This document shows positions 36,314-60,832 of a DNA stretch of 64,000 bases, in pieces. The notes beneath the pieces were generated by a model. It did not search any database, was not told the origin of the DNA, and worked only from the letters and a program-made list of their open reading frames with translations. Position 1 is the stretch's first letter. The number at the start of each line of letters is the position of its first letter. This DNA is from Candidatus Obscuribacteraceae bacterium (GTDB taxonomy: Bacteria > Cyanobacteriota > Vampirovibrionia > Obscuribacterales > Obscuribacteraceae), in NCBI GenBank assembly GCA_044226015.1, contig JBGAHS010000003.1, positions 672,001-736,000 of the forward strand. Reading direction: 5' to 3'. A program made the position numbers and the translations under genes.

Positions 36314-37303
36314 ATGCATGTACCAATCTTTCTTCATCCGGTCGTCGGCATCGCGACTGGACTCATCGGGCTCGGAGTACTCTGGGCTCGAAGCAGAAGG
36401 CAGCCCGCAGTGCAGCACTCACAGGTCGGTATCCACACCAACCTGCGAAGCTTCCCACTGGTCGGCTGGCTGCCTTCGTTGTTCTACCTCTGCCTCATCG
36501 CTTCTCTGTCCGGGCTGCTCGCCTGGCCTGTGTTCAAAGAAAGCGTTGAGCAGCGGCACGTCGAAACGCGGGATGTCCTGCTGAGCGTTGACCAATCGGG
36601 TTCGATGGGTGGCGCGATTCAGGCCGGCCCTCCGCAAGACCTCAACTGGCCCCCAGACAAAGGAACATTCCGGCGACTGGACCTGGCACAATACGCAGTG
36701 CAACTGTTCGTCTCAAAGCGAGCTGGTGACCGCGTCGGTCTCACTGTCTTCGACGACAAGACCTATCGGCACTACCCGATGACAGACGACTTGAAGATCA
36801 TCATCCGTAAAGCCGAGTTGATCAGCAAGAACACCGGCGGTGGCACCAACTTCGAAAGTCCTACCGGACCAATCGCCACAGCCATCGAGCACTTCCGAAC
36901 CTGGGGCAAAGCCAAAACCAAAGTCCTGATTCTGGTCACGGACGGTGAAGCTCCAATTTCAGATGAGCGGATGGCCGAGCTCGTGAAAGAGATGAAGGCT
37001 GTCGGCGGAAAAATCTATGTCCTCGGCATCGGTGAGGACTGGACTAACCCGTCGGACTTCACGAGCAGCCAAACTGAACCACTCCGCAAGATTGTCGCAG
37101 CCCTCGGTGGCAAATGTTTCGCTGTCGGAGACGCGAAGCAAATGGCAGAGGCGCTATCGGTGGTCGATCAACTCGAAAAATCGCAGGTCGTGCTCGAGCG
37201 CAGCACGGTCTACCAGGACGCCTACCAGTACTTCGCTGCGGCGTCGGTTCTTTCTCTTCTCCTGCTAGCCGCGTCGGTGCTCGTCACCCGCGAGCTGGTC
37301 TAA
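36314..37303 (+). CDS. membrane-anchored vWA protein (MxaC/BatA-like), cluster 1
   Basis: GGAG RBS. Two N-terminal TMs, MIDAS DQSGS, GDRVGL, GGTN, TDGE and a C-terminal TM. Confidence 0.88.
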   Translation: MHVPIFLHPVVGIATGLIGLGVLWARSRRQPAVQHSQVGIHTNLRSFPLVGWLPSLFYLCLIASLSGLLAWPVFKESVEQRHVETRDVLLSVDQSGSMGGAIQAGPPQDLNWPPDKGTFRRLDLAQYAVQLFVSKRAGDRVGLTVFDDKTYRHYPMTDDLKIIIRKAELISKNTGGGTNFESPTGPIATAIEHFRTWGKAKTKVLILVTDGEAPISDERMAELVKEMKAVGGKIYVLGIGEDWTNPSDFTSSQTEPLRKIVAALGGKCFAVGDAKQMAEALSVVDQLEKSQVVLERSTVYQDAYQYFAAASVLSLLLLAASVLVTRELV

Positions 37304-37322
37304 CCAAAAGGAGCCTACACCT

Positions 37323-37958
37323 ATGAAAATGTTCAAGAAATGGCGCCAGCTCACCGGGCTGGTGCTCGCCGCAGTGCTTGGAGGCGTGCTGCTCTTCGGG
37401 TCGAGCAAACTCAACTCGTGGGAGTCGCCCCAGGTCATTGCCTACAACCATGGCATCGCTGCTATGAAGGAAGGCAAGGTCGATGAGGCCATGCTTGCCT
37501 TCGACAAGAGCCTCGATGCCTACGCATCCATGGCGCAACGAGAGAGCACGGAATCCAAGCTCTACCCGAGCCGTTCCACTGAACTCGCTGCGCTTGCTCA
37601 GAGCAAGAAAGCGATTCTCTACCTGATGAAGCAGAAGCCCGAACTCGCGGTGAAAGCTTTCAAGGAGAGCATCCAACTCAACCCGGGAAGCATTGAAAGC
37701 GAGCAGCTGAGCCAGCTGTTCGTGGACGAACCGCTTACCAGCAACGACATCAGTCGCCTGAGCGACCAGTCCAGCGTGGTCAAACACAACCTGGAGCTGT
37801 TGTTCAAGAAGAACCAATCTCTCGCACAGGGCGAAGGGAAAGGCAAGGGCAAGGGCAAAGGCAAGCCCGGCGACAAAGAAGGAAAAGAAGGAAACGAGCC
37901 AGCTCCGGGCAGCAAACCTGGTCCTGGTTCCGGCAAGAGCAACCCTAACGCCATCTAA
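37323..37958 (+). CDS. membrane-anchored TPR-like protein (MxaK/BatC-like), cluster 1
   Basis: AAGGAG RBS. N-terminal TM, YNHG TPR-like helices, HNLELL and a G/K/P-rich disordered tail. Confidence 0.75.
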   Translation: MKMFKKWRQLTGLVLAAVLGGVLLFGSSKLNSWESPQVIAYNHGIAAMKEGKVDEAMLAFDKSLDAYASMAQRESTESKLYPSRSTELAALAQSKKAILYLMKQKPELAVKAFKESIQLNPGSIESEQLSQLFVDEPLTSNDISRLSDQSSVVKHNLELLFKKNQSLAQGEGKGKGKGKGKPGDKEGKEGNEPAPGSKPGPGSGKSNPNAI

Positions 37959-37977
37959 CTGGCAGGAGGAACAAGCC

Positions 37978-39033
37978 ATGCATTTTACTCACATGGAATT
38001 TGCCTGGCTCGCTCTCTTGCTGCCAGTTCTGGGCGCGGCGCTCTACGCCGGGCACAAGCTGCGCATGCAAGCAAAGCGAGTTTACGGCACAGAAAACCTG
38101 CTGGAACGCTTCCAGCAAACTCAAAAACGCACGCTGCCGAGCTGGATCCACATGCTCGGTATCTTCTGCGTGGGTGCTTTACTCGTCATCGCTGCGATGG
38201 GTCCGACAACGAACCTGACCAAGCAGCGCGTCTCAGACGGCTCGGTGCAAGCCGTAGTCGTCCTGGACGTTTCTCGCTCTATGGCTGCTGAAGATTATCG
38301 GGAATCGATGCCAGCTGACGCTGGACAGAAACCCGACCTGAATCAGCCCTGGGGTAGCCGACTCGACATGGCGAAGTACCAGATTCTCAAAGTGATGCAA
38401 TCGATTCAGGGCAACCAGTTGGGCATCGTCAATTACGCCGAAAAGGGCTTCCCTCAGGCGGACTTGACCCCCGACTTCACTGCTCTGGATTTCATTGTCA
38501 GAAACTGGGTGACTCAGGGAAATGCACCGGGCGAAGGCTCGCACTACGACAACGGCATCAACGAAGCGCTCGAGATGTTCAAGCGCGATGCTGACCCGTC
38601 TAAAAAGAAGGTGCTCATCCTCATGTCTGACGGCGGCTTCGACGGGAAACCGGACGAGCTTGCCAAAGTCGTTGAGGAACTCAACAAGCAAAACGTGAAG
38701 GTCGTTATCATCGGACTCGGCATGCCGGGAGCCAACGCTATCCCCATCTATGTGGACGGCAAGCTCACGGGCTACATGAAGGCTGAGGACAAAGTGATCA
38801 CGACCTCTTACGAGGAAGACAACCTGCGTCAGCTGGCTGCGATGACGCACGGGTCGTACCACCACGTGGACACGACTCCTGGCAGCCAAAAAATCGCGAT
38901 TGACTGGAGCAACGAAGTTGGTGGTTCGCGCATTGAAATGCGCGGTACGCCGCTTTTCCCTTACTTCGGTGGGGCGGCGCTCGGTCTCGCGGTGATTCTT
39001 TCCATTGCCGGTTTAGTGCGCAAGAAGGACTGA
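37978..39033 (+). CDS. membrane-anchored vWA protein (MxaL/BatB-like), cluster 1
   Basis: AGGAGG RBS. MIDAS DVSRSMAAED, SRLDMAK, LT.DF, SDGG, L.QLA..T.G.Y, and N- and C-terminal TMs. Confidence 0.88.
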   Translation: MHFTHMEFAWLALLLPVLGAALYAGHKLRMQAKRVYGTENLLERFQQTQKRTLPSWIHMLGIFCVGALLVIAAMGPTTNLTKQRVSDGSVQAVVVLDVSRSMAAEDYRESMPADAGQKPDLNQPWGSRLDMAKYQILKVMQSIQGNQLGIVNYAEKGFPQADLTPDFTALDFIVRNWVTQGNAPGEGSHYDNGINEALEMFKRDADPSKKKVLILMSDGGFDGKPDELAKVVEELNKQNVKVVIIGLGMPGANAIPIYVDGKLTGYMKAEDKVITTSYEEDNLRQLAAMTHGSYHHVDTTPGSQKIAIDWSNEVGGSRIEMRGTPLFPYFGGAALGLAVILSIAGLVRKKD

Positions 39034-39160: not shown

Positions 39161-40195
39161 ATGACTGCTAACACCATCATCAACCCGATCAGCCGCACCC
39201 TGACCCAGGTCCGCAAGGTCGTCATCGGTTACCCGACCATGACCGAACTCGTGGCCTACGCTCTCTACGCCGACGGTCACGTCCTTCTCGAAGGTCTGCC
39301 CGGTCTGGCCAAAACGGTGACGGCTCGCGGCTTCGGTCGCGCCATCGAAGGCGCCGAATGGTCCCGTATTCAGATGAAGCCCGACATCCTGCCGTCCGAC
39401 ATCGTCGGTGCGGAAGTCTTCAGCAAGAAGACGCAGGAATTCAGCGTCCGCAAGGGACCGATCTTCGCCAACATCGTCCTGGCGGACGAAATCAACCGTG
39501 CTGCTCCTCGCTCGCAGTCGGCTCTGCTGGAAGCCATGGCGGAAAAGAGCACCTCGCTCGCCGGTCAGACCTTCCGCATGCCCGACCTGTTCTGCGTGCT
39601 CGCCACCATGAACCCGATCGAGCAGGAAGGTACCTACCCGCTGCCCGAAGCGCAGCTGGACCGCTTCCTCTTCAAGGTCACGATGGGCTACGCTCCTCGT
39701 GATGCTTACAAGGCGATGCTGAACAACCAGAAGACGCTCAAGGGCAGCGACCCGCACAAGGACATCGTCGCGGACGTGACGGTGAACGAAGTGCTGGCTG
39801 CTCGCGCCGCCATCAACGAAGTGCACGTCAGCTCTGCCGCCCAGGACTACATCCTGGACTTGGTGGATGCCAGCCGTCCGTCGGACCAGATGTTCACCAA
39901 GTTCGTCTCGCTGACCGGTGCCGAAGGCAAGAAGTTTGCCGAAGCGGTGCAGGTCGGTGGCTCGCCTCGTGCTTACCAGGCTGTTCAGATCACCGCACAG
40001 GTGCGCGCCTTCCACATGGGCCGCAGCTTCGTGCTGCCGGAAGACATCCAGTACGTCGCTGGCTCTGTGCTCCGTCACCGCCTGATCCTGAACCGCAAGG
40101 CTCGCATGGACGGCAAGTACACCACGGACGATGCCGTCAAGGCGCTGGTCGCCGGCGTGCCGTTCCACAACAACCTGGCTGACTACCAGGGCTAA
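39161..40195 (+). CDS. moxR: MoxR-family AAA+ ATPase, cluster 1
   Basis: GHVLLEGLPGLAKT, RIQ..PDILPSDIVG, GPIFANIVLADEINRA, ATMNPIEQEGTYPLPEAQLDRF, SPRA and VLRHRL. Confidence 0.95.
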   Translation: MTANTIINPISRTLTQVRKVVIGYPTMTELVAYALYADGHVLLEGLPGLAKTVTARGFGRAIEGAEWSRIQMKPDILPSDIVGAEVFSKKTQEFSVRKGPIFANIVLADEINRAAPRSQSALLEAMAEKSTSLAGQTFRMPDLFCVLATMNPIEQEGTYPLPEAQLDRFLFKVTMGYAPRDAYKAMLNNQKTLKGSDPHKDIVADVTVNEVLAARAAINEVHVSSAAQDYILDLVDASRPSDQMFTKFVSLTGAEGKKFAEAVQVGGSPRAYQAVQITAQVRAFHMGRSFVLPEDIQYVAGSVLRHRLILNRKARMDGKYTTDDAVKALVAGVPFHNNLADYQG

Positions 40196-40350: not shown

Positions 40351-41292
40351 ATGAAAACACAGACCGAACTGGAGATTGAAAACATTCTCCAGCGCATCGC
40401 GTTCTGCGCTATTCCGATCAACTGGAAGTCGGAAAACCCGATGCCCGGTGTCGGAGAGCGCAAGAGTCGCTATCGCGGTCCGGGGGCTGACTACGTGGAG
40501 TTCGTGCCATTCGAAGATGGTGACGACCCACGCCACATCAACTGGGCAATGACGGCACGCGCTACCGATGACGATGTCATCTGGCGTACCGTTCATCAGG
40601 AAGAGAAGGAAATTCGGAGCGTGGTGCTGGTGAAAGCCGGCCACTCGATGGATTTCGGCACGGTGCGCACGACCAAGCGCCACGTGGCTGCGGAGATGGC
40701 TGCGTCCATCTACTTCGCGCTGGACAAGACCCGTGACAAAGCGGGGCTCATCTTGTACTCGCGTGATGCCGTACTTCAGGACCTGCCTTGCCGTCAGGCG
40801 ATGAGCACCCTCTACCCTGCGCTGGAATCAATCATCGAATGCGACCCTTACGCACCCACTGCAATCGAGCAGCAAGGTGACGGGTTGTCTAAAGCGCTCA
40901 GCGGATTGCCGACGCAACGCTCGCTCGTCTTCATCGTCTCCGACTTCGAAGACATGAGTGAGAAAGACTGGCGTGAACTGGGCAACGCCGCTTGCTATCA
41001 CGACGTGGTCTGCATCTACGTGCAAGACCGTCGTGAGCGCGAGCTTCCCCCACTGCCGGGCATGCTCGGCTTCCTGGGCTGCTTCTACCGGATTCAGGAC
41101 TACAGCGGCCGCTCTCGTCTCATCTGGAATAACGCCCGCACCCGCCGTATCTACAGCGACAACTTCAAGAAGCACGAGGCGAAAATCCTCTCTGCTCTGG
41201 AAGAACGTCTCTGCCAGACGATGGTTGTGAGCACCGAAGAGGGCGATGCAGCCATCCCCAAAATCCTCGACCTGTTCACAGGTCACTGCTGA
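40351..41292 (+). CDS. DUF58 / MxaS-like degenerate vWA protein, cluster 1
   Basis: G.G.DY.E, GDDPRHINW..TAR, SMDFGT...TK, D..GL and FIVSDF. Confidence 0.88.
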   Translation: MKTQTELEIENILQRIAFCAIPINWKSENPMPGVGERKSRYRGPGADYVEFVPFEDGDDPRHINWAMTARATDDDVIWRTVHQEEKEIRSVVLVKAGHSMDFGTVRTTKRHVAAEMAASIYFALDKTRDKAGLILYSRDAVLQDLPCRQAMSTLYPALESIIECDPYAPTAIEQQGDGLSKALSGLPTQRSLVFIVSDFEDMSEKDWRELGNAACYHDVVCIYVQDRRERELPPLPGMLGFLGCFYRIQDYSGRSRLIWNNARTRRIYSDNFKKHEAKILSALEERLCQTMVVSTEEGDAAIPKILDLFTGHC

Positions 41293-41303: not shown

Positions 41304-42341
41304 ATGAAAAACAACAAATTCCTTTCTATGATGTTCGCCGCCCTCTTCGCGATTGGGTTCTTCGCCGCTGGCAACAGCCCGGCGATGGCCCAGTCGGAAG
41401 ACGATGGCTTCCCGTTTCCACCGCAGCAAGAAGCTGCGGCTCCGGCGCCCCAGAACCCGATGGTCAAGTCGATGGACTCGGGGCGCCTCATCATCGCCGT
41501 CGGTTCACCGCGTAACTTCGGTTACCGCATCGGCGACCTGATTCCCGTGACGATGGTGGTGTCCGCGGACAAGAACGTGCAAGTCAACCTCGAAGCGATT
41601 CGTCGCAAGACGCTAAGCTCGGAGGGCTCGGACTTCGAACTTGTCGGGGCACCATCGGTAGTGCAAGAGCAGCAAGGTGAGAAAACCATCTGGCGCGTGC
41701 AGCTCTTACTGCGCAGCTGGGTAATCAAACCGGTGCTCGTGTTCAACTGCGACTTCCACTTCGCCAGCGAGCTGCTGCCCGACGGTAAGACCCCCAACTG
41801 GCGGCCGGTCAGCTCACCTGACTTTGTTGTGGAGATGTCAAACATCGCTACCGAAGCAGCAAAGGAACTGCTGCCCGGCGACATGGACTTGAAGGAGAGT
41901 CCTAAGCCGGCGCTGGTGCAACCGCTGAAATATGCGGGTTATCTGGCGTTCTCGCTGCTGCCTGCATGGTTGCTCTGGCAGCTCTGGTGCCGCGTGCGTC
42001 CGCGTCGCCCGGTGACGACAGCTGAACGCGCCTGGATGGAGTTCGATCAGGTCATGGCAGATGCACAGTCTGCTGGTGGTCTGAAGTACGAACACCTCTT
42101 CCGTATCTCGGGCACTTTGCGCAGCTACCTGTGCATCGAAGCTGTACCGACTTCGGAAGTGGCCATCCCGCTTGAGCAGTTCTTCTCGATGCATGATGAC
42201 CGCCTCGAGCTGATGACCATCACGGTCAGTGCACTCTCCAAACTGGAACGCGCTCTCTACAGCAAGAGCGAACTCACCAGCGAAGAGCAGTTCACTCTGA
42301 TGCGCGAAATCGAGCGCATCGTGCCACGACCGCTCAACTAA
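41304..42341 (+). CDS. MxaA/BatD-like single-pass membrane protein, cluster 1
   Basis: Signal peptide, PRNFGYRIGD beta-rich domain, TM helix and a helical C-terminal domain (AW.E, LRSYL). Confidence 0.7.
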   Translation: MKNNKFLSMMFAALFAIGFFAAGNSPAMAQSEDDGFPFPPQQEAAAPAPQNPMVKSMDSGRLIIAVGSPRNFGYRIGDLIPVTMVVSADKNVQVNLEAIRRKTLSSEGSDFELVGAPSVVQEQQGEKTIWRVQLLLRSWVIKPVLVFNCDFHFASELLPDGKTPNWRPVSSPDFVVEMSNIATEAAKELLPGDMDLKESPKPALVQPLKYAGYLAFSLLPAWLLWQLWCRVRPRRPVTTAERAWMEFDQVMADAQSAGGLKYEHLFRISGTLRSYLCIEAVPTSEVAIPLEQFFSMHDDRLELMTITVSALSKLERALYSKSELTSEEQFTLMREIERIVPRPLN

Positions 42342-42541
42342 CCAAGACGAACGAGACGCTAAGAATCGTTCAATACCGCAACAGGGGTCCTCGGTAATTC
42401 ACTGAGGACCCCTGAGCTTTTCCCGAGTCAGCATCGAGCCAGAGTCCTCGCACCAAATGCGGTGCGGGGACTCTGGCGTTTCTCTGGAGTTTTTATCCCG
42501 CGACAGTCAGTCGCAACACCACTAGATTGGAGAGAATCCAA

Positions 42542-44059
42542 ATGAAAAAGACACTTTTGAGCTTTATTGCTCTCGGCGCGTTCGCCGTCGGCAGCATCTT
42601 CTACACCGCCCCGGTGAACGCTCAAGCTCCCGCAGGCGGTCCTGTCATCAACAGCCCGGCGGCACCACCTCCGGTGGCGAAGCCCCAAGCGGCGTTCGAT
42701 GGTCCGTCCCTCTACAAGGCTGCCTTCGAGCAGATCCGTGACTTGCACATCGAACTCAGCACTCCGGAGAAGGTCGCCGCCTTCACCAAGGAGTGGGAAC
42801 ATAAGTTCGACCAGACCGGAGAACTCAAAACTGAGGAAGGCACTGACAAAGCCATTCTCAAGATGATGCAGTCTCTCGGTCAACGCTTCGACTACAGCTT
42901 CGACAAGGAAGCCACCCAAGCCGAAGCCAACCAGGTCGACGCCACGCTCATCGGCATCGGCGCGACGATGAAGCTGAACAAGCTTGCCGAAATCGTCAAG
43001 TCACTGCCGAAGGACTCGAAGCCTGAGGACGTGAAGAAAGCAATCGCCATCAGCAATGAGAACCACTTGCTCATCGAAGAGCCTCTGGAAGGTGGACCTG
43101 CTGAAAAGGCAGGGTTGAAGCCTGGCGACATCGTCCGCAAGGTCGACGACAAAGACGTGAACGGCATGCAAATGACTGAAGCCATCAAGTCCATCAAGGG
43201 CAAGGAAGGCACCTCAGTCAAGCTCACGATTGAACGAACGACTGATGGCAAGACTGAAACCCTGGATGTGACTGTCGGTCGCGCCAAGGTGACGGTTCCG
43301 GATGCAACGTTCAAAGACCTGGGCGACGGCATGTCCTATGTCCGTCTGCGCGACTTCATGTCGAAAAACGCCGTCAAGGAAATGAATGACGCACTGAAGA
43401 AGGCAGCTAAGGGCAAGGGTCTCATCCTCGACCTGCGCGGTAACCCCGGCGGTAGCCTGACGGCTGTCCTGACGATGTGCGGCATGCTCATGGAAGATGG
43501 TCCGATTCTTGTGACTCGGTCTCGCAACGGTGACCGCATCACCGAAGAAGAAATCGTTCTGAACAAAAAGTTCGTACAGAACATTTCTCCGTCCGCCAGC
43601 GACCCCAACAACCTGGAAATCTCGGCTGGTCCTCGCACCAAGCTCATCATCCCCGCCGACATGCCCATCGTGGTGTTGGTTGATGAGGGCTCGGCAAGTG
43701 CTTCCGAAATTCTCTCGGGTGCTCTGCAACACAATCACCGCGCCACCGTTGTCGGCATGCCGACCGTTGGTAAGGGCGTTGGTCAAACCGTAGTGAAGTT
43801 GCCCTTCGGCCGCAGTCTCCATGTCACGAGCTTTGAATTCATCCCCGGTCGTACTCCCAACGACTGGATCGGTGTGATTCCCAACGTCAAAATCGAGCGC
43901 GGCGAAGACCCCAAGGTCGACGCTCAACTCGACAAGGCGAAGGAACTCATCGTTCCGATGATAAAGGCAGTGGAAGACACGCGCACTCAGCGCGACGAAC
44001 AACTCAAGAAGCATCATGAGGAGTTCGAGAAGGAACTGAAGGAACGCAACAAGAACTAA
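42542..44059 (+). CDS. ctpA: S41A C-terminal processing protease (CtpA/Prc-like) with PDZ, secreted
   Basis: Signal peptide, GIG PDZ loop, PAEKAGLKPGD, DLRGNPGG, SASASEI (catalytic Ser), T.GKG (catalytic Lys) and G..P. Confidence 0.92.
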   Translation: MKKTLLSFIALGAFAVGSIFYTAPVNAQAPAGGPVINSPAAPPPVAKPQAAFDGPSLYKAAFEQIRDLHIELSTPEKVAAFTKEWEHKFDQTGELKTEEGTDKAILKMMQSLGQRFDYSFDKEATQAEANQVDATLIGIGATMKLNKLAEIVKSLPKDSKPEDVKKAIAISNENHLLIEEPLEGGPAEKAGLKPGDIVRKVDDKDVNGMQMTEAIKSIKGKEGTSVKLTIERTTDGKTETLDVTVGRAKVTVPDATFKDLGDGMSYVRLRDFMSKNAVKEMNDALKKAAKGKGLILDLRGNPGGSLTAVLTMCGMLMEDGPILVTRSRNGDRITEEEIVLNKKFVQNISPSASDPNNLEISAGPRTKLIIPADMPIVVLVDEGSASASEILSGALQHNHRATVVGMPTVGKGVGQTVVKLPFGRSLHVTSFEFIPGRTPNDWIGVIPNVKIERGEDPKVDAQLDKAKELIVPMIKAVEDTRTQRDEQLKKHHEEFEKELKERNKN

Positions 44060-44153: not shown

Positions 44154-45737
44154 ATGAAAATCACAACTGCAATCGCCGCTCTGCTGCTGACCCTGAGCAT
44201 GGGCACTGCCAATGCGCAGGTCCCGCAAGACGAGAGCCTCGCGCCGCCGTCTCAGGAGAACAACAAGCCCGCTGTGACGATGCCTCAGCAGCAGGCAGAG
44301 CCGACCGAAGACGAAGACGAAGAGATCATCATCATTCCCGGACCCAAAATCGGCAAGCCGGGCAAGCCGCAGATGACACCTGCGATGTTCGAGATGCTCT
44401 ACCAGGCTGTCTGGGCGAAGGTCGGCAAGGAATATCAGGACCCCTACAAGCTCAACGAATGGGCGTCCTGGCAGAACAAATACAAGGGCAAGCTGAAGAC
44501 GCCGGAAGACCTCGACGCAGCCATCAAGGACATGCTCGGCAGCTTGAAAGACCGCTGGACCGTTTACTACGCACCTAGCGACCTGAAGGCCCAAGAAAAG
44601 GCGCACAAGGAAGGCATGCTCAGCGTCGGCATGCTCGTTCGCAAGCACAGCGACAACCTCTGGCACATCGACAACCTCTCCTTCAACTCGCCAGCGATGC
44701 TGTCCAAGTTGCGGGAAGGTGATGTGATCAAGTCAGTCAATGGCAAGCAACTCGACACGCTCAACGCCAGCCAGGTTTCCGACCTGCTCAAAGGCAAGGA
44801 AGGGGAGAAGCTGGCCATCGTTGCGGTGATGGATGGTGCAGAGCAAACCGTCGAGTTGACATTTGCACCGCAAGGTGAGGATGAAGTCGCGCTTGGTATG
44901 CTTCCCGGCAACATCCTGTACATTCGGCTGCCCACCTTCGTTTCGGAAGAGACGGTAGGCGAGTTCATGCAGGCGCTGGGACAGGCCTGGGAAGCGTCGC
45001 AAGGACAAATCAACGGGCTTGTCTTCGACTTGCGTTACAACTCGGGGGGGCTGGTGACCATGGCACTCTCGGTCTCGTCGGCGTTCCTTGAGAATGGCAC
45101 CGTGACTGCTACCACGACTCGGCAGGACCGCAGCGTTCAGGAGACTCGTTACAACGTGATTCCTGTGCCGCATTACCTTGAGTCGCGAATGCCGAAGGAC
45201 GCGGCGATGTTCACACACTTCCTGCAGACGGTACCAATGGTGGTGCTGACCAACGGTTCAACTGCAAGTGCTTCGGAAATCACCACCGGTGCTCTGAAGG
45301 ATAACGGACGAGCCTATGTCATCGGAACCCACACTTTCGGAAAAGCAGTGGGCTACACTCGGGAAGGAATGCCGAACGGTGGGGTGCTGCAGGTCACAAA
45401 CCTCAGCTATCTCACGCCGAACGGTTCCAACATCGCAGACAAGGGCATCATGCCCGACAAGGTTGTGAACCAACCTCGTGGTCAAGCCATCATGGGTGAA
45501 AACGACGAGCAACTGCAAGCCGCTCACGAGCATCTGATGAAGATTGCCGTTCAGCGTGCTAAGCAGCTCGCCGACGCTCAGAAGCTGTCCACGAAGGGAC
45601 ACACCGATGTCGACGCAAAGAAGTCCGCGCCATTTGTCTGGCATCCGCTGTACATCCTACTTGCCACTGTCGGCGGTAGCTCTGTACTGCTGCTTGTTCT
45701 CTTTGGCGCAAGCAAGCTGAAGCGCAGCAAGCGCTAA
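44154..45737 (+). CDS. ctpA: S41A protease with PDZ and C-terminal TM anchor
   Basis: CAGGAG RBS, signal peptide, DLRYNSGG, TASASEI, TFGKA, C-terminal TM and SKLKRSKR tail. Confidence 0.9.
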   Translation: MKITTAIAALLLTLSMGTANAQVPQDESLAPPSQENNKPAVTMPQQQAEPTEDEDEEIIIIPGPKIGKPGKPQMTPAMFEMLYQAVWAKVGKEYQDPYKLNEWASWQNKYKGKLKTPEDLDAAIKDMLGSLKDRWTVYYAPSDLKAQEKAHKEGMLSVGMLVRKHSDNLWHIDNLSFNSPAMLSKLREGDVIKSVNGKQLDTLNASQVSDLLKGKEGEKLAIVAVMDGAEQTVELTFAPQGEDEVALGMLPGNILYIRLPTFVSEETVGEFMQALGQAWEASQGQINGLVFDLRYNSGGLVTMALSVSSAFLENGTVTATTTRQDRSVQETRYNVIPVPHYLESRMPKDAAMFTHFLQTVPMVVLTNGSTASASEITTGALKDNGRAYVIGTHTFGKAVGYTREGMPNGGVLQVTNLSYLTPNGSNIADKGIMPDKVVNQPRGQAIMGENDEQLQAAHEHLMKIAVQRAKQLADAQKLSTKGHTDVDAKKSAPFVWHPLYILLATVGGSSVLLLVLFGASKLKRSKR

Positions 45738-52953: not shown

Positions 52954-54069
52954 ATGACCGAACTCTTCCTGAGGCCTTATGCCGTGATCTTCCTCATCCT
53001 GGTCGCACCCTTCGTCTTCGGGTGGGCTCACAGGCAGATCACGATTCGTCATTCGTCCCTTAAGCCTCAGAAGGGACTGCGGACTCACAGCCTGCTCATC
53101 ATGGCAGCGTCTGTCTGTCTTGCACTTATGACGACCAACCTCACCATCGCTCTGATGGGACCCAAAGTCCCCGATGCGAAGGTGGAACACATCGCTGTTA
53201 TTCGGAAGGTCTGCCTCTTCATCGACCGCTCCGGTTCCATGACAGCGGTTCTCACCGAAGGCGCGAAAGAGCTGTCCGAAGACGAAGCTGCCGCCAAGTC
53301 TACCGCTGGTGCTACCGTCGGCGGCGGCGGCAACGACAAGCTCAGCCTCAACAGCGGCAACGGCGAAGATACAGAGGGCAAGTCCGACAAGGACCTGACC
53401 CGCATCGATGCTGCCCAGCTCGCGGCGCGTTACATCATCCGCAACCGGATGACGGACAACCCGAACGAGACGGACCAGTTCTGCATCTGGACCTTCGACA
53501 CCGATTCCTATAATCTGGCTCCGCTCAGCAACGACAAAAACGCGCTGCTGAAACGCGCCACGCACATCAGCGAGAACGTCGGCGGCGGCACCAACTTCGC
53601 TGGACCGTACGGCTACATCTCGGGAATCGGACCGTTGCAGAAGGCGTCGGACTTCTTCGGCAAGTACGCCACGCCCGACAGCGTCTCGGTGGTGATTCTC
53701 ATCACCGACGGTGAGGACGGCTTCCCGGAGGAACGCAAAAATCAGCTCCTCCAGCTGTTCAAGCAGCAGAAGCTGCGATTCTATGTCATCGGTCTCGGCG
53801 ACGGATGGAAAGAGGGTAACAACCTCGACCTCCAGAAATTCGCTGACGCGATTCATAAGGATGACCCGACCAACGGACTCGTTTTCCGTGCGTCGAATCC
53901 TGGTGCGATGCGCGCTGCGATGGAGACCATCAACAAGCTCGAGAAGGCGCAAGAGGTTGTGCTGGACCAGCAGGAATATAAGGAGATCTTCCAATACTTC
54001 TTGTATGCCGCCGCTGCGTTCGGTGCTCTTTTCGTGCTGCTCGCGCTAGCCGCGCGGCGTGTCCCGTAA
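52954..54069 (+). CDS. membrane-anchored vWA protein (MxaC/BatA-like), cluster 2
   Basis: GGAGG RBS. MIDAS DRSGSM, GGGTNF, ITDGE, I.KLEK, and N- and C-terminal TMs. Paralog of 36314-37303. Confidence 0.88.
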   Translation: MTELFLRPYAVIFLILVAPFVFGWAHRQITIRHSSLKPQKGLRTHSLLIMAASVCLALMTTNLTIALMGPKVPDAKVEHIAVIRKVCLFIDRSGSMTAVLTEGAKELSEDEAAAKSTAGATVGGGGNDKLSLNSGNGEDTEGKSDKDLTRIDAAQLAARYIIRNRMTDNPNETDQFCIWTFDTDSYNLAPLSNDKNALLKRATHISENVGGGTNFAGPYGYISGIGPLQKASDFFGKYATPDSVSVVILITDGEDGFPEERKNQLLQLFKQQKLRFYVIGLGDGWKEGNNLDLQKFADAIHKDDPTNGLVFRASNPGAMRAAMETINKLEKAQEVVLDQQEYKEIFQYFLYAAAAFGALFVLLALAARRVP

Positions 54070-54082: not shown

Positions 54083-54664
54083 ATGAAGCATCTGAAAAGC
54101 CCGAGAAGCTGGGTGATCATCAGCTTCCTGGTCGGGTTCGTCCTGACCATGACAGGCTGGGTCTGGTGGGAACAGCAAACCCCCCAGACGCAGTACTACA
54201 ACAAGGGTCTCATCGCCTACAACACGGGCAACTGGGACCTGGCAGTTCGGCACTTCGACCGCTCGGTCGCAGAGTTCAACTCCGCCGACACTGCCGACAA
54301 AAGCGTCCTCAAGGCGCCGGCGTCGGTCGAGATGGCAGCTCTGGCTCAGTTCCACAAGTTCATGGCTCTCCTGAAAATGAAGAACGCCAAGTTGGCGGTC
54401 GACGCTATTAAGGAAAGCCTGAAGCTGAGCAGCGAGATGAACCTGAAGAAGTACCAGCTCAGCGACAGCGAACTGCGTCGCATCCAGGAACAGCGCTTCG
54501 ACGCGCAGACGGACCTGGAGATTCTCTTCAAGCAACAGGAGCAGATGGCACAGGGTGAAGGCAAGAACGGGAAGAAGCCCGGTCAGCCGCAGCCTGGCGA
54601 CAAGCCTGCCGACGACCCGGGCAATCAGCAGGGTTCCGGAAAGGGCAATCGCAACCAGCTCTAG
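54083..54664 (+). CDS. membrane-anchored TPR-like protein (MxaK/BatC-like), cluster 2
   Basis: AGGAGG RBS, TM helix, YNKG, LAV.A.KES..L and AQGEGK...GSGK tail. Paralog of 37323-37958. Confidence 0.75.
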   Translation: MKHLKSPRSWVIISFLVGFVLTMTGWVWWEQQTPQTQYYNKGLIAYNTGNWDLAVRHFDRSVAEFNSADTADKSVLKAPASVEMAALAQFHKFMALLKMKNAKLAVDAIKESLKLSSEMNLKKYQLSDSELRRIQEQRFDAQTDLEILFKQQEQMAQGEGKNGKKPGQPQPGDKPADDPGNQQGSGKGNRNQL

Positions 54665-54677: not shown

Positions 54678-55805
54678 ATGCTTGGTATCTCATTCATGGT
54701 GCCCTATCTGTTCTGGATAGGGGCACCACTCGTGCTCCTTGCCGGACTCGCTCTGGCTTGGTACAGCACTAAGCTCACCGAGAGCACTCGTTCGTATTTC
54801 GGTGAGCTTGCTCTTCTTGGTCCGCTGAGCCCGAAGACGGTGAAGCAGACCCGTTCGCTCTGGGCACAGTGGATCGCGTTCTTCGTGATTCTCGTGACCG
54901 CTGCCGCTGGTCCCAGTGGCAATGACACGCCGTCGCTGGCACGTGCCGGCGCTCTGCAGGTCATGATGGTCTACGATGTGTCCAACTCGTGCGGCGCGGA
55001 AGACTACCGCGCCTACGTCCCGCCTGCACCCGGTCAAGAAGTACCTGGCTCGATGTACGCGTGGGGAACTCGCTGCGACATGGCGAGGCTCATCACCGAG
55101 CGCGACCTGCTTCCGATGTTGAAAGACAACGAAGTCGGTCTCGTCACGGTGGCGGGCGTCGGCTACAACATGTGGGACCTCACCAGGGACCACGGAGGTG
55201 CGCTCAAGTACGAGTTGCAGAACTTCCTGAAACCTGGTGCCGCTCCTGGTGGCGGTGCTGATTACACCAGCGGACTGCGAACCGCGCTCAAGGGTTTCGA
55301 CTCGATGGGCAAAGACGACAGCAAAGAGCGCTTCATCGTGCTTTTCGCTGACGGCGGTTTCACCGGCGACCCGGCTGAACTGGACAAGGTTCTGGCTGAG
55401 TTGAACAAGCGCAAGATTCACCTCCTCATCGTGGGGCTCGGCGGTTTGACACCGATTTCGGTGCCGACTTACGACTCGACGACCAAGCAGCGCAACGGTG
55501 CCTACGAAGGTACGACTGCTTACGAGAAGGCGACTCTCGAGCACATGCGCGATGTGGTGCAGGGCTCTGTCCTCATCCACGCCGCTCCGGGTTCTGGTCC
55601 GGTCACGTACAACTTCCCTGCCAAGGCGGGTGGGCTGTACGCTGTGCCGAAGCAGTCCAACCTCTACCCCTGGCTTCTGCTGGTCGACATGCTGCTCCTC
55701 GTGAGCATCACGTTCGGCGGCGGTGGCTTGCCTCGTCGCAGCCTGGTCGTGCCGCTCTTCAAAGAGCCGTACGACTGGGTCAAGGGGAAAATCAGCCGGT
55801 CCTAG
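54678..55805 (+). CDS. membrane-anchored vWA protein (MxaL/BatB-like), cluster 2
   Basis: MIDAS DVSNSCGAEDYR, WGTR.DMA, DLT.D and DGGF.G.P.EL.KV..ELNK. Paralog of 37978-39033. Confidence 0.85.
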   Translation: MLGISFMVPYLFWIGAPLVLLAGLALAWYSTKLTESTRSYFGELALLGPLSPKTVKQTRSLWAQWIAFFVILVTAAAGPSGNDTPSLARAGALQVMMVYDVSNSCGAEDYRAYVPPAPGQEVPGSMYAWGTRCDMARLITERDLLPMLKDNEVGLVTVAGVGYNMWDLTRDHGGALKYELQNFLKPGAAPGGGADYTSGLRTALKGFDSMGKDDSKERFIVLFADGGFTGDPAELDKVLAELNKRKIHLLIVGLGGLTPISVPTYDSTTKQRNGAYEGTTAYEKATLEHMRDVVQGSVLIHAAPGSGPVTYNFPAKAGGLYAVPKQSNLYPWLLLVDMLLLVSITFGGGGLPRRSLVVPLFKEPYDWVKGKISRS

Positions 55806-55867: not shown

Positions 55868-56944
55868 ATGACGAATCTCTCGCATGACGAACTCCGCGCG
55901 AAGTGCCAGAAGGTGCTGGCGGAGTACAACAAGTATGTCTACGGCTACGAAGACATCGGTCAGAAGCTGCTGATCGCGATCATCGCCGGTCGCGTCTGCC
56001 ACATCCTGACCGAAGGCGTTCCCGGTCTCGCCAAGACGCACAGCGTCAAGGTGATGTCCTACGCCATCGACGGCATGAGCTCCACGCGCATCCAGTTCAC
56101 CCCGGACATGATGCCCAAGGAGATCACCGGCGCCAAGATTCTCGACCTCGAGACCCGCAAGTCCCACATCGAATGGGGACCGATCCGCGGCGTCAACCTG
56201 GTCGTTGCCGACGAAATCAACCGCGGCAAGACCAACACGCAGTCGGCTCTTCTGGAGGCGATGGGTGAAGGTCAGGTCACGGTCGCCGGCGTTCGCGAAA
56301 AGATGGCCAACCCCTTCGTGGTCATGGCCACGCAGAACCCCATCGAACAGGAAGGCACCAACCCGCTGCCCGAAGCGCAGCACGACCGCTTCCTGTTCAA
56401 GATCGTCTTCGACTACGCCAGCGAAGACGCCGAGCTCAAGATTCTCGAGAACTCGGACCTCGGCGACTCCTCGGTCTACGACAAGATCGAGGCGCACATG
56501 TCGAAGGACGAAATCCTCGCCGCGCGCGCCTTCGTGGACTCGAGCATCAACGCGTCTCGCACGTTCAACAACTACCTGCTCAAGGTCTGCCGGACCACCC
56601 GTCCGGACAAGCCCGAGTTCAAGGAGTTCTGCGAGAAGCACCCGGAGCTGGCCAAGATCATGAACATGGTCAAGGTCGGCGTCGGTCCTCGTGCTCTGCA
56701 GGGTCTGCAGCGCGCGTGCAAGGTGCAGGCGTTCCTCTTCGGCAAGACCGAGGACGGCGCCGCGCGCGACTACGTCATGCCGGAAGACCTCAAGGCTCTC
56801 GCGCATGCCGTTCTTCGCCACCGCATCATCATGAAGGAGGAGGCTGCCTACACCAAGGGCGGTGCCGTCACTTCCGATGATGTGATCAAGGCGATTCTCG
56901 ACAACGTCTTCCCGATCGAGGACGTTCGCGAGTACAAGCGGTAA
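55868..56944 (+). CDS. moxR: MoxR-family AAA+ ATPase, cluster 2
   Basis: EGVPGLAKT, RIQFTPDMMP, VVADEINR, ATQNPIEQEGTNPLPEAQHDRF, GPRA and VLRHRI. Confidence 0.95.
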   Translation: MTNLSHDELRAKCQKVLAEYNKYVYGYEDIGQKLLIAIIAGRVCHILTEGVPGLAKTHSVKVMSYAIDGMSSTRIQFTPDMMPKEITGAKILDLETRKSHIEWGPIRGVNLVVADEINRGKTNTQSALLEAMGEGQVTVAGVREKMANPFVVMATQNPIEQEGTNPLPEAQHDRFLFKIVFDYASEDAELKILENSDLGDSSVYDKIEAHMSKDEILAARAFVDSSINASRTFNNYLLKVCRTTRPDKPEFKEFCEKHPELAKIMNMVKVGVGPRALQGLQRACKVQAFLFGKTEDGAARDYVMPEDLKALAHAVLRHRIIMKEEAAYTKGGAVTSDDVIKAILDNVFPIEDVREYKR

Positions 56945-57067: not shown

Positions 57068-58084
57068 ATGGACCGCGAAGAAAATCTCGACATCATTCTC
57101 GACCTTCGGCGAAAGATTGCAGAAGGGGAACTCACCATCCGCTGGCCCTCGAGCGAAATGCTCGCCAGCGCGCTCTTCCGCCGCAGCAACCGCAAGGGGC
57201 CCGGCGATGATCAGGATGGTCTCAAGGAATACGAGGCTGGCGATGACCTCCGGCACGCCGACTGGATCGCAACCGCGTCCGAGTCGGACCCGAGCATGGT
57301 CATCATCAAGACCTTCCACGAACCGCGGGTGGTGCGCTTCAACGTGCTGATGGACGTTCACCCGTCCATGAGCTTCGGCACCACCGGTTCGCTCAAGAGT
57401 CGTCTGGGCGCACTCTGCGCCGGCTGCGGACTGATCACCGCTGCCAAGGCGCGCGAGAGAATCAGCTACGTCACGTTTGCTGGGCAACCGGTGACCGTGC
57501 GCAGGAACCAGAGCGCGACCCGCGTTCTGACTGATTTCCTCATGCACGCCATCGAGGACGGCGATGCTGCCAACAAGGCGGCGGCGAACTCGGAAGGCGG
57601 CGGCATGGCTGCTGCCTTCGACACGATCAACAAGAAGCAGCGTTCGTTCGTGCTTCTTGTCTCCGACTTCGTCAACATGTCGGAGGACGACTGGGAGGCG
57701 CTGCGCGTGTCCGGCTTCAAGAACGACACCGTCGCGGTGTTCGTTCAGGACATCCGCGAGCGAGAGTTGCCTGAGGTTCCCTGGCCGGGAGCCAGCTACG
57801 CCTTCGAAGACCCGAGCGGCAACAAGAAAACGCTCTGGGTCACTCCGGACCATTCGCCCAAGATTCTCGCGGGCATCACCGGCTTCATCTCGAAGCTGGC
57901 GGCGCGTCTGCTCAAAGCTGACAGCGTCACCAGCCGCGAGAAGTACCGGCAGAACTTCCGGAAGCACGAGGCTCAGGTACTCGACCGCCTCGAATCCTAC
58001 GGCATCAAGACCGTGGTCGTGAGCACCGAAGCGGAGATGGACTCTGTTCATTCCCTGCTCAGGGTGCTGGCTAACAAGCGCTAG
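57068..58084 (+). CDS. DUF58 / MxaS-like protein, cluster 2
   Basis: GPG, EY..GDDLRHADW..TA, DVHPSMSFGT, LVSDF and D.RERELP. Confidence 0.88.
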   Translation: MDREENLDIILDLRRKIAEGELTIRWPSSEMLASALFRRSNRKGPGDDQDGLKEYEAGDDLRHADWIATASESDPSMVIIKTFHEPRVVRFNVLMDVHPSMSFGTTGSLKSRLGALCAGCGLITAAKARERISYVTFAGQPVTVRRNQSATRVLTDFLMHAIEDGDAANKAAANSEGGGMAAAFDTINKKQRSFVLLVSDFVNMSEDDWEALRVSGFKNDTVAVFVQDIRERELPEVPWPGASYAFEDPSGNKKTLWVTPDHSPKILAGITGFISKLAARLLKADSVTSREKYRQNFRKHEAQVLDRLESYGIKTVVVSTEAEMDSVHSLLRVLANKR

Positions 58085-58094: not shown

Positions 58095-59177
58095 ATGTTC
58101 AAAATGATCAGAAAGTTGACTCTGGCGCTGTCGTTGGCTGCACTCTCTTTCGCGGGAGTCGCATTCGCCGATGACAGCAGCTCGAAGCTCCCCGAACCGG
58201 TTTCGCCGGAGCGGGGCGCTGTCGTCGACGGGCGTGTCAACGTCTACATCGGAACGCCGCGCGTCAATGCCTACGGCATCGGCGACAGCATTCCGGTGAC
58301 GCTCGTCTTCGAGATGATTCCACCCAAGCCGGAGGAGCTCAACAGCACCCCGGCTGCTCCTACCCCCGAAGCTTCCAAGCCCGGCGAGCCCATCAAGGCA
58401 CCGGAGAAGAAGCTGCTGCCGATGCCGCGCATCGATGTCGAAGGTCTTCTCATGCAGGTTCAGTCTGCTGAGAAACTCGATGTCGACATGCTCGGCGGCG
58501 CCCAAGAGGTGCAGCGCTACACGCGCGACGGCAAGGAATATCTGCGTGTGGTGTTCTACGTCTGGACCTTCGTCACGACGAAGCAGACCCAGGTCGACGT
58601 GAAGGCGGACTTCATGTACGCCTATCAGGCCCTGGAAGACGGAACGCCCGACTGGAAGAAGGCAAGCTCGCCAACCATCCACGTCGGCATCCGCAAGACC
58701 GCCGCAGACAACCAGACCAGGATGCGCGAGGGTGACCTCACGCTGAAGGCGAGCCCTCGGGTCGCCGCAGCGCCGTACGCCCTGGTCGGCGGTGTTCTGC
58801 TTCTGCTGCCGCTCTTCGGCGCGCTCGCCTTGACCGGCTACCGCCGCTACATGGAGCCCAAGAAGCTGAACGCCAACGAAAGTGCCTGGGCCGAACTCGA
58901 CGCCATCTTCAACGAGGCGGCGAAGTCTGGCTACAACATCGACGTGTACAAGAGCATCTTCTTCGTGCTGCGCCGGCGCTTCAACGTGCTGGCTCTGGAC
59001 GGCAAGGAACTCTTCGCTGCAGTCAAGGCGCACCCGGACCTGGCGTCGGCTCAGTTCAGTGACATCGAAGCGGTCTTCGGCATGGAAGCCATCTTCTACG
59101 CCAAGAACGCCCGCGTCACCGACGAGCAGAACCTGGCATTCGTGGAGGGCATCAAGAAGCTCATCCCGCGCCACTAG
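58095..59177 (+). CDS. MxaA/BatD-like single-pass membrane protein, cluster 2
   Basis: Signal peptide, GTPRVNAYGIGDSIPVT, DG.TPDW...SSP, TM helix and E.AW.E.D. Paralog of 41304-42341. Confidence 0.7.
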   Translation: MFKMIRKLTLALSLAALSFAGVAFADDSSSKLPEPVSPERGAVVDGRVNVYIGTPRVNAYGIGDSIPVTLVFEMIPPKPEELNSTPAAPTPEASKPGEPIKAPEKKLLPMPRIDVEGLLMQVQSAEKLDVDMLGGAQEVQRYTRDGKEYLRVVFYVWTFVTTKQTQVDVKADFMYAYQALEDGTPDWKKASSPTIHVGIRKTAADNQTRMREGDLTLKASPRVAAAPYALVGGVLLLLPLFGALALTGYRRYMEPKKLNANESAWAELDAIFNEAAKSGYNIDVYKSIFFVLRRRFNVLALDGKELFAAVKAHPDLASAQFSDIEAVFGMEAIFYAKNARVTDEQNLAFVEGIKKLIPRH

Positions 59178-59236
59178 CCTGAGCCCCCAGGTGGGAGGCT
59201 CAGGTCTTCCACCTGGTTTCAACAAAGGAAAATGCC

Positions 59237-60832
59237 ATGAGAAAGATCATCTCAGGCGTGCTTGCCGCGACTCTCATGTCCGGCAGCATGCTTTTCTCGG
59301 GCGGGCAGGCTCTGGCTGCGGCACCGTATTGCCAGGCACTGAACCCGCAACCCGACACCCCGGAAGCTGCCCAGTTCTTGCAGCTCCTCAAGCAGTCGAG
59401 CGACCCCCATGTGGTCGCCGCGCAGATTCTCGACAAGGTCGCCCCGCTGCCGCCCGAAGCGCTGCAGCAGATCTACGACGAGACCTTCCAGTTCCTCGTC
59501 AACCACTACATCGACGACAGCAAGCTGGAGCACTTGAAAGAGTACCAGCATAAATATGATGGGAAGATTCAGACGCGCAAAGACCTCGAGTTGGCGCTGA
59601 AGGATCTGACCACGTCGATGGGCGACCGCTGGACCTGGTCGAAGGGCGCCTCGGACACCGTCAAGAGTGTCATGATGGCAATCTCGAAGCAGGTCAACTT
59701 CGGCATCAGCTTGCGCAAGCAGGATGATGGCAGCTTCAAGATCGAGGCGATGATGTACGGCTCGACGGCTCAGGCTTCCGGTCTGCGCGAGGGCGACACC
59801 GTTCTCTCGGTCAACGGGCGTGAGCTCAAGGGTCTCGACAAGGACACGGCGGAAGCCCTGCTCATCGGACCCATCGGCAACTCGCTCAAGGTGACCAGCA
59901 TTCAGGACGGCAAGACGGTGGAAGCCAGCTACACGCTGAGCGCCCCCGTGCCCAACGATGCCGGCGCCAAGCTGCTCGAGAACAATCTCGCCTACCTGAA
60001 GTTGCCCAACTTCATGAGCGACGAAGACTTCCAGAAGCTCGTCGGCTCCATGGGCGATATGGCTGCCACCACCCCCGGTGGTCTCCAGGGCATCGTGCTT
60101 GACCTCCGCTACAACGGCGGCGGTCAGGTCGAGATGGCCAAGACGCTGATTCGGCTGCTCATGTCGGAAGGCGTCGTGATTCAGGAGCTGGCTCGCGATG
60201 GTCGCGACCAGACCGAAACGAAGCTGACGCTGCGTCCGTACAACAGCATGGACACTCTGAAGTATCCGCCCAAGGTTATGGAGGTGCTGCAAGAGCTGCA
60301 GAAGCTTCCGCTGGTCATCCTGGTCAACGGCTCGTCCGCTTCGGCAGCGGAAATCACGACCGGCGCGCTGATGGACAGCCGTCCGAACACGCTGGTCATC
60401 GGTGAGCAGACCTTCGGCAAGTTCACCGAAATGCTGATGCAGGAACTGCCGACCTGTGGCAGCATCGCCGTCACCTCTGGGCGTTACACCACGCCCGACG
60501 GCAAGTGGCTGCAGAACGCCGGCATCACGCCGAACGTCATCGTGCATCAGCCGCGCGGCTCTACGGAAGACGCGCAGATGAAGGCGGCTATCGACTTCCT
60601 CGAGAAGAAGACCGCTTTCAACCCGGCCAACGTGGTGCAGAAGCCCGTGGACACGAAGGAATACTTCGGTCCCGTGCCCGCGCGCCCCGAGCCGCCCCAG
60701 GCCGACACCGACTATGTGCAGCTGGCGCGGGAAAACCGCACGTTGCTCATGCAGGTCGGCGTGGGTACGTTCCTGTCCGCAATTCTCGGCATCTTCCTGC
60801 TGCTCTCGCGGCGCCGGAAGGACGAGAAGTAA
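59237..60832 (+). CDS. ctpA: S41A protease with PDZ and C-terminal TM anchor, cluster 2
   Basis: Signal peptide, DRWT, GLREGD, DLRYNGGG, SASAAEI, TFGK, GITP, C-terminal TM and SRRRKDEK tail. Confidence 0.9.
   Translation: MRKIISGVLAATLMSGSMLFSGGQALAAAPYCQALNPQPDTPEAAQFLQLLKQSSDPHVVAAQILDKVAPLPPEALQQIYDETFQFLVNHYIDDSKLEHLKEYQHKYDGKIQTRKDLELALKDLTTSMGDRWTWSKGASDTVKSVMMAISKQVNFGISLRKQDDGSFKIEAMMYGSTAQASGLREGDTVLSVNGRELKGLDKDTAEALLIGPIGNSLKVTSIQDGKTVEASYTLSAPVPNDAGAKLLENNLAYLKLPNFMSDEDFQKLVGSMGDMAATTPGGLQGIVLDLRYNGGGQVEMAKTLIRLLMSEGVVIQELARDGRDQTETKLTLRPYNSMDTLKYPPKVMEVLQELQKLPLVILVNGSSASAAEITTGALMDSRPNTLVIGEQTFGKFTEMLMQELPTCGSIAVTSGRYTTPDGKWLQNAGITPNVIVHQPRGSTEDAQMKAAIDFLEKKTAFNPANVVQKPVDTKEYFGPVPARPEPPQADTDYVQLARENRTLLMQVGVGTFLSAILGIFLLLSRRRKDEK

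Follow-up and report, generated by a model that had tools for sequence, protein, structure and literature searches.

Why should the gene for a predicted cytoplasmic MoxR ATPase be followed, in two separate clusters, by genes for S41 tail-specific proteases that are predicted to act on the other side of the inner membrane? The question is raised by a 64,000-nucleotide stretch of DNA from Candidatus Obscuribacteraceae bacterium, one of the uncultured relatives of cyanobacteria that do not photosynthesize (hereafter, the window; positions 672,001 to 736,000 of contig JBGAHS010000003.1, assembly GCA_044226015.1), in which two clusters, a and b, each encode two von Willebrand factor A (vWA) proteins, a tetratricopeptide repeat (TPR) protein, MoxR, DUF58, a single-pass membrane protein, and S41. 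The genome comprises 8.19 Mb in 13 contigs and is 92% complete; the contig carrying the window is called C6 below. We find that the S41 link is real, but specific to Obscuribacteraceae. With a confidence a little short of even, we read the clusters as a reordered Bat/Mxa-type MoxR module, long inherited with S41 tail-specific proteases of its own, in which cytoplasmic ATP hydrolysis may control periplasmic proteolysis. The direct observations comprise gene content, intact motifs of the ATPase, of the metal ion-dependent adhesion site (MIDAS) and of the Ser-Lys dyad, co-inheritance, and a disordered tail of the TPR protein with a conserved hydrophobic end.

As the original prediction had described, 15 intact open reading frames on the + strand form two vWA-TPR-vWA-MoxR-DUF58-single-pass-S41 runs; Pfam agrees, giving S41 and PDZ twice in cluster a and once in cluster b, and no family for the single-pass protein. 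Start codons are our choice, made from ribosome-binding-like sequence upstream. Cluster a opens with vWA1a (36314-37303; BatA/MxaC-like; Pfam VWA_2, NCBIfam BatA below cut-off, hydropathy), which has two N-terminal transmembrane (TM) segments, a vWA domain with MIDAS (DQSGS), and a C-terminal TM segment. There follow TPRa (37323-37958; BatC/MxaK-like; Pfam TPR_1, structure model, tail survey), with an N-terminal anchor, TPR helices, and a predicted disordered 40-residue tail ending in PNAI; vWA2a (37978-39033; BatB/MxaL-like; Pfam, NCBIfam, hydropathy), with three TM segments and a MIDAS (DVSRS); MoxRa (39161-40195; Pfam AAA_3, E 1.5e-56, alignment), an AAA+ ATPase with intact Walker A and B motifs and arginine finger; DUF58a (40351-41292; Pfam DUF58, hydropathy), a predicted cytoplasmic vWA-like adaptor with a degenerate MIDAS and no TM segment; and single-pass protein a (41304-42341; model, folds, hhalign, Atlas), of the MxaA or bat gene 3 type. 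After a gap containing two stem-loops (42382-42477; sequence folding) come S41-alpha (42542-44059; Pfam S41 and PDZ, tree, hydropathy, motif alignment), with a signal peptide, a PDZ domain with a G-I-G loop, a Ser-Lys dyad, and a charged C-terminal helix but no anchor, and S41-beta (a) (44154-45737; Pfam S41 and PDZ, hydropathy, motif alignment), with a signal peptide, a degenerate PDZ loop, a Ser-Lys dyad, and a C-terminal TM anchor.

Cluster b consists of vWA1b (52954-54069; Pfam, paralog match, hydropathy), TPRb (54083-54664; tail end RNQL; Pfam, paralog match), vWA2b (54678-55805; Pfam, paralog match, hydropathy), MoxRb (55868-56944; Pfam, paralog match, alignment), DUF58b (57068-58084; Pfam, paralog match), single-pass protein b (58095-59177; paralog match, hydropathy), and, 59 bases further on, S41-beta (b) (59237-60832; Pfam, hydropathy, motif alignment), again with a C-terminal TM anchor. 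All three S41 proteins in the window have a PDZ domain and a Ser-Lys dyad. Each position has its counterpart as best paralog, as had been claimed (identity 26% for vWA1, 32% for TPR, 33% for vWA2, 39% for MoxR, 29% for DUF58, 23% for the single-pass protein, and 33% for S41), the S41 of cluster b corresponding to the second S41 of cluster a and not to its first (paralog match, tree). A third copy, of the four-gene form vWA-TPR-vWA-single-pass, lies elsewhere on the contig (C6:400670-404285).

The protease link was surveyed in loci from three sources: 24 regions; 60 regions from at least 150 family matches (one or a few genomes per genus); and 69 close loci found by searching GTDB contigs with a vWA2 alignment, a search that returned 75 loci, the other six being distant (five Acidobacteriota and one Micrococcales). 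The close loci are mostly titled Obscuribacterales, Obscuribacteraceae, Melainabacteria, or Cyanobacteria, with some titled 'bacterium' and three other phyla. A profile of the single-pass protein matched 67 of 104 Obscuribacteraceae genomes (26 of 37 genera, often several matches per genome), one of three genomes of the sister family, and 13 of 300 other genomes in a sample of the phylum, these last all weakly and in the C-terminal part only. After removal of duplicates and exclusion of the window's two, 116 single-pass genes were scored. Where MoxR-DUF58 directly precedes the single-pass gene (the full cluster), S41 comes next in 51 of 62 scorable cases, with two more at contig ends, and the S41-bearing full clusters span about 21 genera by hand count; a lack of S41 conservation beside homologous clusters was thus not found. 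Four loci of the four-gene form, in which vWA2 directly precedes the single-pass gene, have MoxR-DUF58 elsewhere in the cluster, and four scored single-pass genes have no visible upstream genes, two of these with S41. In a congener of the window genome, both clusters are present in the same order as in the window.

Phylogeny indicates that the cluster proteases are of two kinds. Specifically, cluster S41-alpha proteins form a clade (support 98), while the beta group includes one stand-alone S41 on a long branch; topology tests do not reject beta as a clade (p 0.35) and reject a single clade of all cluster S41 proteins (p 0.005). A C-terminal TM segment is present in 40/40 beta and 0/38 alpha proteins, and the G-I-G PDZ loop is kept in alpha and mostly without its first glycine in beta. 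The tree of alpha S41 shares 18 of 22 supported splits with that of the five-gene core (2 conflicts) and the tree of beta S41 shares 22 of 28 (4 conflicts), against core-versus-core baselines of 15-16 of 19-22 and 19-20 of 22-27 splits (0-4 conflicts); agreement of S41 with the core is as good as that among core genes. Paralogous clusters sort by type across genomes, and the window's two betas group with their own types, not together. Shuffling is indicated by one exception, L022, where the core is b-type and the beta is followed by an a-type alpha. The expectation that S41 phylogeny tracks the core is thus borne out and no signal of independent insertion was found, although alpha and beta are not one clade.

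Ser and Lys are both present in 76 of the 85 cluster S41 proteins. The serine is missing from the remaining nine, which comprise two minor groups and L013 and are likely pseudo-proteases, judged from their sequences; they occur in L006 (a third S41), L013, L016, L033, L039, L043, L049, L180, and L183, five standing second behind an alpha S41 and three being the sole S41 of their cluster. The four-gene state arose three times on a 51-row tree, monophyly being rejected. Joint loss of motor and S41 was considered as proof of coupling and rejected, because only three pairs are independent and partial duplication could give the same pattern.

A possible physical link is offered by the TPR tail. In the TPRa model, an anchor helix is followed by TPR helices that extend to residue 169, and the tail beyond them has a predicted local distance difference test (pLDDT) score of 40-58; G, P, K, and Q are frequent in the tail, which ends in G-K-G-x-[RKP]-[DN]-x-[IL]. 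The last TPR residue is I, L, or M in 47/47 S41 clusters, versus 10.5% of 5357 called genes. The longer ending D/N-x-[ILM] is found in 46/47 S41 clusters and in 13/13 four-gene copies derived from them, as compared with 4/8 other full clusters and 0/21 remaining four-gene forms. Binding of a C-terminus to PDZ activates CtpB and Prc, and TPR adaptors partner S41 proteases in the pairs LbcA with CtpA and NlpI with Prc (PMC11021448); the tail is therefore a candidate tethered PDZ ligand.

The hairpin at 42382-42414, put forward in the original prediction as a possible partial terminator before the protease, is present and is followed by a second stem-loop; however, the interval from MoxR to DUF58 contains stem-loops of equal strength in both window clusters. 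Across 51 clusters, the strongest hairpin has a median energy of -29.5 after the single-pass gene, -30.0 after MoxR, and -22.7 after DUF58, where the comparison sequence is mostly coding. As the values after the single-pass gene and after MoxR are alike, we rejected the hairpin as a separator of core and S41 and regard the caveat as weak; on sequence grounds, the stem-loops look like internal ones of one operon. No sigma-70-like site was seen in either gap before S41, such scans being weak.

Several observations weigh against a working connection between module and protease. The four-gene form has S41 next in 0 of 41 cases (seven more lie at contig ends), and no S41 was found in 20 Acidobacteriota loci (six of them cut by contig ends; the best-scoring, from 58 of 201 matching genomes). 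S41 is not obligatory even in full clusters, 11 of the 62 having none adjacent: five carry a rhomboid, one an FtsH-like gene, two a small F1 gene, and three nothing labelled. F1, small and unrelated, also follows 28 of the 62 full clusters, so that company alone is not partnership. Strong hairpins with at least four T stand behind the single-pass gene in 13, and behind MoxR in 8, of the 51 clusters. The S41 state changes six times on the 51-row tree with only three independent pairs, which is not significant, and genes inherited side by side would have congruent trees in any case. The tail, moreover, keeps a hydrophobic end without adjacent S41 in 32/34 four-gene forms and 7/8 other full clusters. 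Among the four-gene forms, D/N-x-[IL] is retained by all 13 derived ones, and 19 of the 21 remaining ones still end in I or L. Its partner may therefore be a core subunit, for example a MIDAS site. Finally, the sole protease of cluster b is a beta whose PDZ loop lacks the first glycine. What remains of the predicted S41 coupling is a conserved, tree-congruent association, confined to one family and not obligatory within it.

Such counts bear on the possibility that the S41 genes are simply co-regulated members of an envelope-stress operon, physically unconnected to a MoxR module that serves another client. We doubt this explanation but take it seriously. In many loci the core does without a neighbouring S41, other passengers (F1, F15, F16, and X) are also conserved around type-specific clusters, and the neighbourhoods are generally rich in proteases (FtsH, RseP, ClpP, and rhomboid). 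Co-regulation does not, however, account readily for two dedicated S41 clades of fixed architecture and position across paralogs only 23-39% identical, or for a D/N-x-[ILM] tail that tracks the S41-bearing lineage.

The surveyed neighbourhoods vary further. In a sister type of full cluster (L014, L018, L069, L070/L071, and L075/L076), the last gene encodes a rhomboid protease, preceded in four cases by one for a small exported protein. Locus L053 (3233-10948) reads vWA-TPR-vWA-single-pass-MoxR-DUF58-single-pass-FtsH, and its two single-pass genes make it a possible intermediate of the rotated order. Downstream of four-gene loci (L012, L038, L083, and others) there is often a gene for a holin-IV-like membrane protein or an amidase_3, and 3-8 kb upstream there are FtsH-like and RseP-like proteases and a deacetylase. 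The apparent upstream 'S41' of the four-gene loci L012, L021, L038, L083, and L084 is an RseP-type M50 protein and not S41 (three proteins read), and was never counted as linked.

Judged from sequence comparison, the six genes before the proteases are the shared core of the Bat and mxaRSACKL operons, rotated, and without BatD or BatE in the clusters. The original prediction had named this likeness, and it is upheld because the single-pass protein matches both a Parabacteroides bat gene and a cluster auto-named 'MxaA protein'. In particular, the single-pass profile aligns with a gene of the Parabacteroides bat operon that has no name and is flanked by DUF58 and batA (hhalign 91%, E 1.1e-6; L100:6885-7994), and the 'MxaA protein' cluster, its name automatic, is the third Atlas look-alike (score 0.95). 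The structure model (pLDDT 89.9) shows a signal helix, an immunoglobulin (Ig)-like sandwich, one TM helix, and a cytoplasmic five-helix bundle that is DUF4381-like (DUF4381 itself matches weakly in 4/23 members). Foldseek gave no clear PDB match to this model, and its fold neighbours (VIA) stay in the range seen for common arrangements (best Z 9.6 for a helical bundle, about 8 for pilin-type Ig). A PRxxxYxIGD motif was found in both single-pass proteins, as noted earlier, and is present in their family; the original prediction likened it to MxaA.

The remaining core proteins are consistent with this identity. NCBIfam models of BatA, BatB, and BatC match window proteins below their Leptospira cut-offs; DUF58 adjoins MoxR in both window clusters (Pfam); and in surveyed clusters the MoxR motifs are largely intact (Walker A 61/63, Walker B 54/63, DR[FL] 60/63), as is the MIDAS DxSxS (98/106 vWA1 and 99/106 vWA2). 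BatD and BatE are absent from the genes of either cluster, all of which are assigned, the rest of the genome not having been searched for them. The moxR gene is not first in the window or in most relatives, but is first in L040, L041, and L068. From hydropathy and flanking basic residues, MoxR and DUF58 are predicted to lie in the cytoplasm, and the Ig, vWA, TPR, and protease domains beyond the inner membrane, in agreement with the topology first proposed; the TM segment of single-pass protein a lies below the hydropathy threshold used, but is a helix (205-231) in the structure model. The precedent of the homologue BB0173, whose vWA domain was shown experimentally to be periplasmic (PMC5700661), is consistent with this predicted arrangement. 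The proposed 'trans-envelope' machine would thus span the inner membrane, but not the whole envelope.

In the Bat operon of Bacteroidota and spirochaetes (moxR, DUF58, unnamed gene 3, and batA-E; Parabacteroides distasonis is L100), MoxR, DUF58, gene 3, two three-TM vWA proteins, and the TPR protein all match. Here, unlike in Bat, vWA-TPR-vWA comes first, S41 stands at the 3' end, there are several paralogous copies, and the TPR protein ends in D/N-x-I/L and not in EKEW as in Parabacteroides BatC. The function of Bat is unsettled, one report finding no role in oxidative stress (PMC3557215) and another a stress role (PMC11834572). The six gene types of mxaRSACKL are the same as here and the vWA-TPR-vWA order is common to both; the single-pass protein resembles the auto-named 'MxaA protein' cluster. 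The order here is a circular permutation (C-K-L-R-S-A), and proteases stand in place of a pyrroloquinoline quinone (PQQ) dehydrogenase.

All six mxaRSACKL genes are needed for Ca2+ loading of the periplasmic methanol dehydrogenase MxaFI in methylotrophs (PMC12276312), and the identity of the gene sets invites the reading that the proteases are clients, matured or unlocked by the module through metal insertion or removal of an inhibitory tail and then acting alone. The conserved MIDAS motifs fit this reading, as does the lack, claimed earlier and now seen genome-wide, of any PQQ methanol dehydrogenase over cut-off (TIGR03075, best 38.7 bits versus a cut-off of 480, in this 92% complete genome). 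On the other side, we know of no metal cofactor of S41A proteases, and the matches examined in the same genome include seven stand-alone S41 genes without such a module beside them. The rhomboid and FtsH proteins that occupy the same slot are structurally unrelated to S41, and S41A proteases use a Ser-Lys dyad (PMC11021448). We consider it unlikely that the proteases are mere clients.

Under our favoured reading of ATP-controlled periplasmic proteolysis, the module would most likely serve quality control in the periplasm, driven by ATP. MoxR proteins act on a vWA partner by twisting and stretching it (PMC13036017). In our model, DUF58, gripped by the MoxR ring, would tug at the helical bundle that the single-pass protein has in the cytoplasm; this pull would shift a periplasmic vWA1/vWA2/TPR assembly whose MIDAS sites may hold damaged or foreign envelope protein; and S41-alpha would receive the TPR tail in its PDZ domain, which would both tether and activate the protease next to the anchored S41-beta, so that the released client would be cut. 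Rhomboid or FtsH would take the same slot in sister clusters. The full version of this model, an ATP-dependent periplasmic protease in which MoxR ring force passes through one TM helix to a vWA/TPR scaffold, a tethered tail peptide turns a pair of S41 proteases, one soluble and one anchored, on and off, and rhomboid and FtsH are exchangeable blades in sister clusters, is doubtful; if true, it would indicate that Bat-type systems generally are trans-membrane extraction motors.

Known systems share parts of this design. CtpA-LbcA, Prc-NlpI, and CtpB resemble it in having a PDZ and Ser-Lys protease beside a membrane-anchored TPR protein (PMC11021448); unlike in CtpA-LbcA and Prc-NlpI, the TPR protein here is short, anchored in the inner membrane, and tied to an AAA+ motor, and there are two protease types, one of them TM-anchored, as candidate partners. 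Pseudomonas Arc2 (PA4317-23; PMC8926400) and NorQ/NorD (PMC13036017) likewise pair MoxR with vWA proteins on membrane targets, but their gene sets, as given in those papers, differ and are without S41; NorD and NorQ act on one and the same side of the membrane, unlike the split proposed here (PMC13036017). Arc2 protects against a pore-forming toxin (PMC8926400) and MoxR-vWA pairs sense epibionts in Actinomycetota (PMC13622651), and the clusters are patchy, multi-copy, fast-diverging, and located in accessory DNA; the unit might accordingly serve defence, extracting and destroying attackers' toxins or attachment proteins at the inner membrane. This proposal, which overlaps our favoured reading and differs in the substrate, is quite unlikely: Pfam and the neighbourhood survey show no effector or sensor domain in the clusters, and the likeness to Arc2 is known for the MoxR/vWA pair alone.

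Searches of open-access text found no description of MoxR linked with a carboxyl-terminal or tail-specific protease, nor any relevant paper on MoxR in Melainabacteria. As far as those searches reach, the protease-linked module is real and undescribed, a variant of a known but unsolved class of machine. MoxR-DUF58-vWA-TPR operons across bacteria mostly have no known client, and their pairing of a cytoplasmic ATPase with periplasmic vWA proteins is unexplained. The module here likely recruits and controls proteases outside the inner membrane, which would give that class a testable job and, if the coupling holds, would constitute an energy-coupled proteolytic route in the periplasm. Since it comes with an easily measured enzyme and a short candidate interaction motif, whether MoxR ATP hydrolysis has any effect in the periplasm can be put to a protease assay in E. 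coli, the host also used for the mxa genes.

Base composition bears on the origin of the clusters. With gene calls from a simple custom script, G+C content at third codon positions (GC3) is 0.68-0.86 in cluster genes, against a genome mode of 0.40-0.50 and relatives' medians of 0.72-0.86; cluster S41 genes, at 0.70-0.84, are like their operon, and six of the seven stand-alone S41 genes lie at 0.43-0.50. Genome-wide, 200 of 5130 genes exceed 0.65, in few regions, and 99 of these 200 fall into 35 paralog families. The predicted old duplication with kept linkage thus stands as to its diverged paralog pairs, but doubling is usual in this gene class and proves little, so that the evidence for coupling is the survey and not the doubling.

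The high-GC3 genes lie in 5-10 kb blocks between ordinary genes (C6:400-840 kb, with the window inside it, C1:1140-1265 kb, the end of C8, and the start of C9). Their modules recur two to four times, mostly at 24-64% identity, and include a five-gene lipid-type module in three copies, at least two copies of a large membrane protein together with its coiled-coil partners, and three FtsH-like genes.

Such copying would suit S41 as a hitch-hiker on a repeatedly copied foreign high-GC3 block with no shared function, as would a huge phage that carries a related MoxR-DUF58-vWA-TPR-vWA run. Flanks differ among clusters while the S41 slot is kept, however, the catalytic residues are retained, and six of the eight cluster-a proteins have no PHROG family, the other two giving generic ATPase and PDZ-region matches; we regard hitch-hiking as very improbable. 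A phage origin of the cluster is unsupported by PHROGs, and viral scans gave 14 generic MoxR loci without the module, one short weak match, and otherwise nothing. In the phage (LR756511.1, 595 kb; L099:6834-12936), MoxR, DUF58, a 474-aa membrane protein, vWA, a TPR-like protein (by eye), and vWA follow the mxaRSACKL order among replication genes, with no S41 in 24.8 kb; the 474-aa protein has no significant match to the single-pass family.

Downstream of cluster b lie X1 and X2 (60905-63679, +; Pfam, paralog match, neighbourhood survey), paralogous N-anchored repeat proteins that are 35% identical, have no assigned family, and are accessory genes of cluster b and some related clusters; all Atlas leads for X1 scored under 0.9. 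The run continues with a 213-aa protein and an FtsH-like gene past the window end, to C6:739037. L002 has the same run with one X, and X also directly follows a derived four-gene type. A 116-aa protein without an assigned family after cluster a (45838-46188) has a 64% identical paralog after cluster b's FtsH (C6:738681-739037). Between the clusters, a GntR-aminotransferase regulator (50221-51720) of host-like GC3 (0.48) is found also in the congener (G002) and near 10 surveyed loci. Farther upstream, a weak chagasin-type inhibitor match (2616-3032) belongs to family F15, which lies upstream of many type-a clusters in relatives. The - strand at 26682-33235 encodes a 1050-aa membrane protein and three coiled-coil proteins that are nearly identical to one another (84-98%) and carry a hydrophobic stretch at the N-terminus; we take them to recall PspA and TPM-domain proteins, although Pfam gave no such match, and a similar set is present at C8:720-725 kb.

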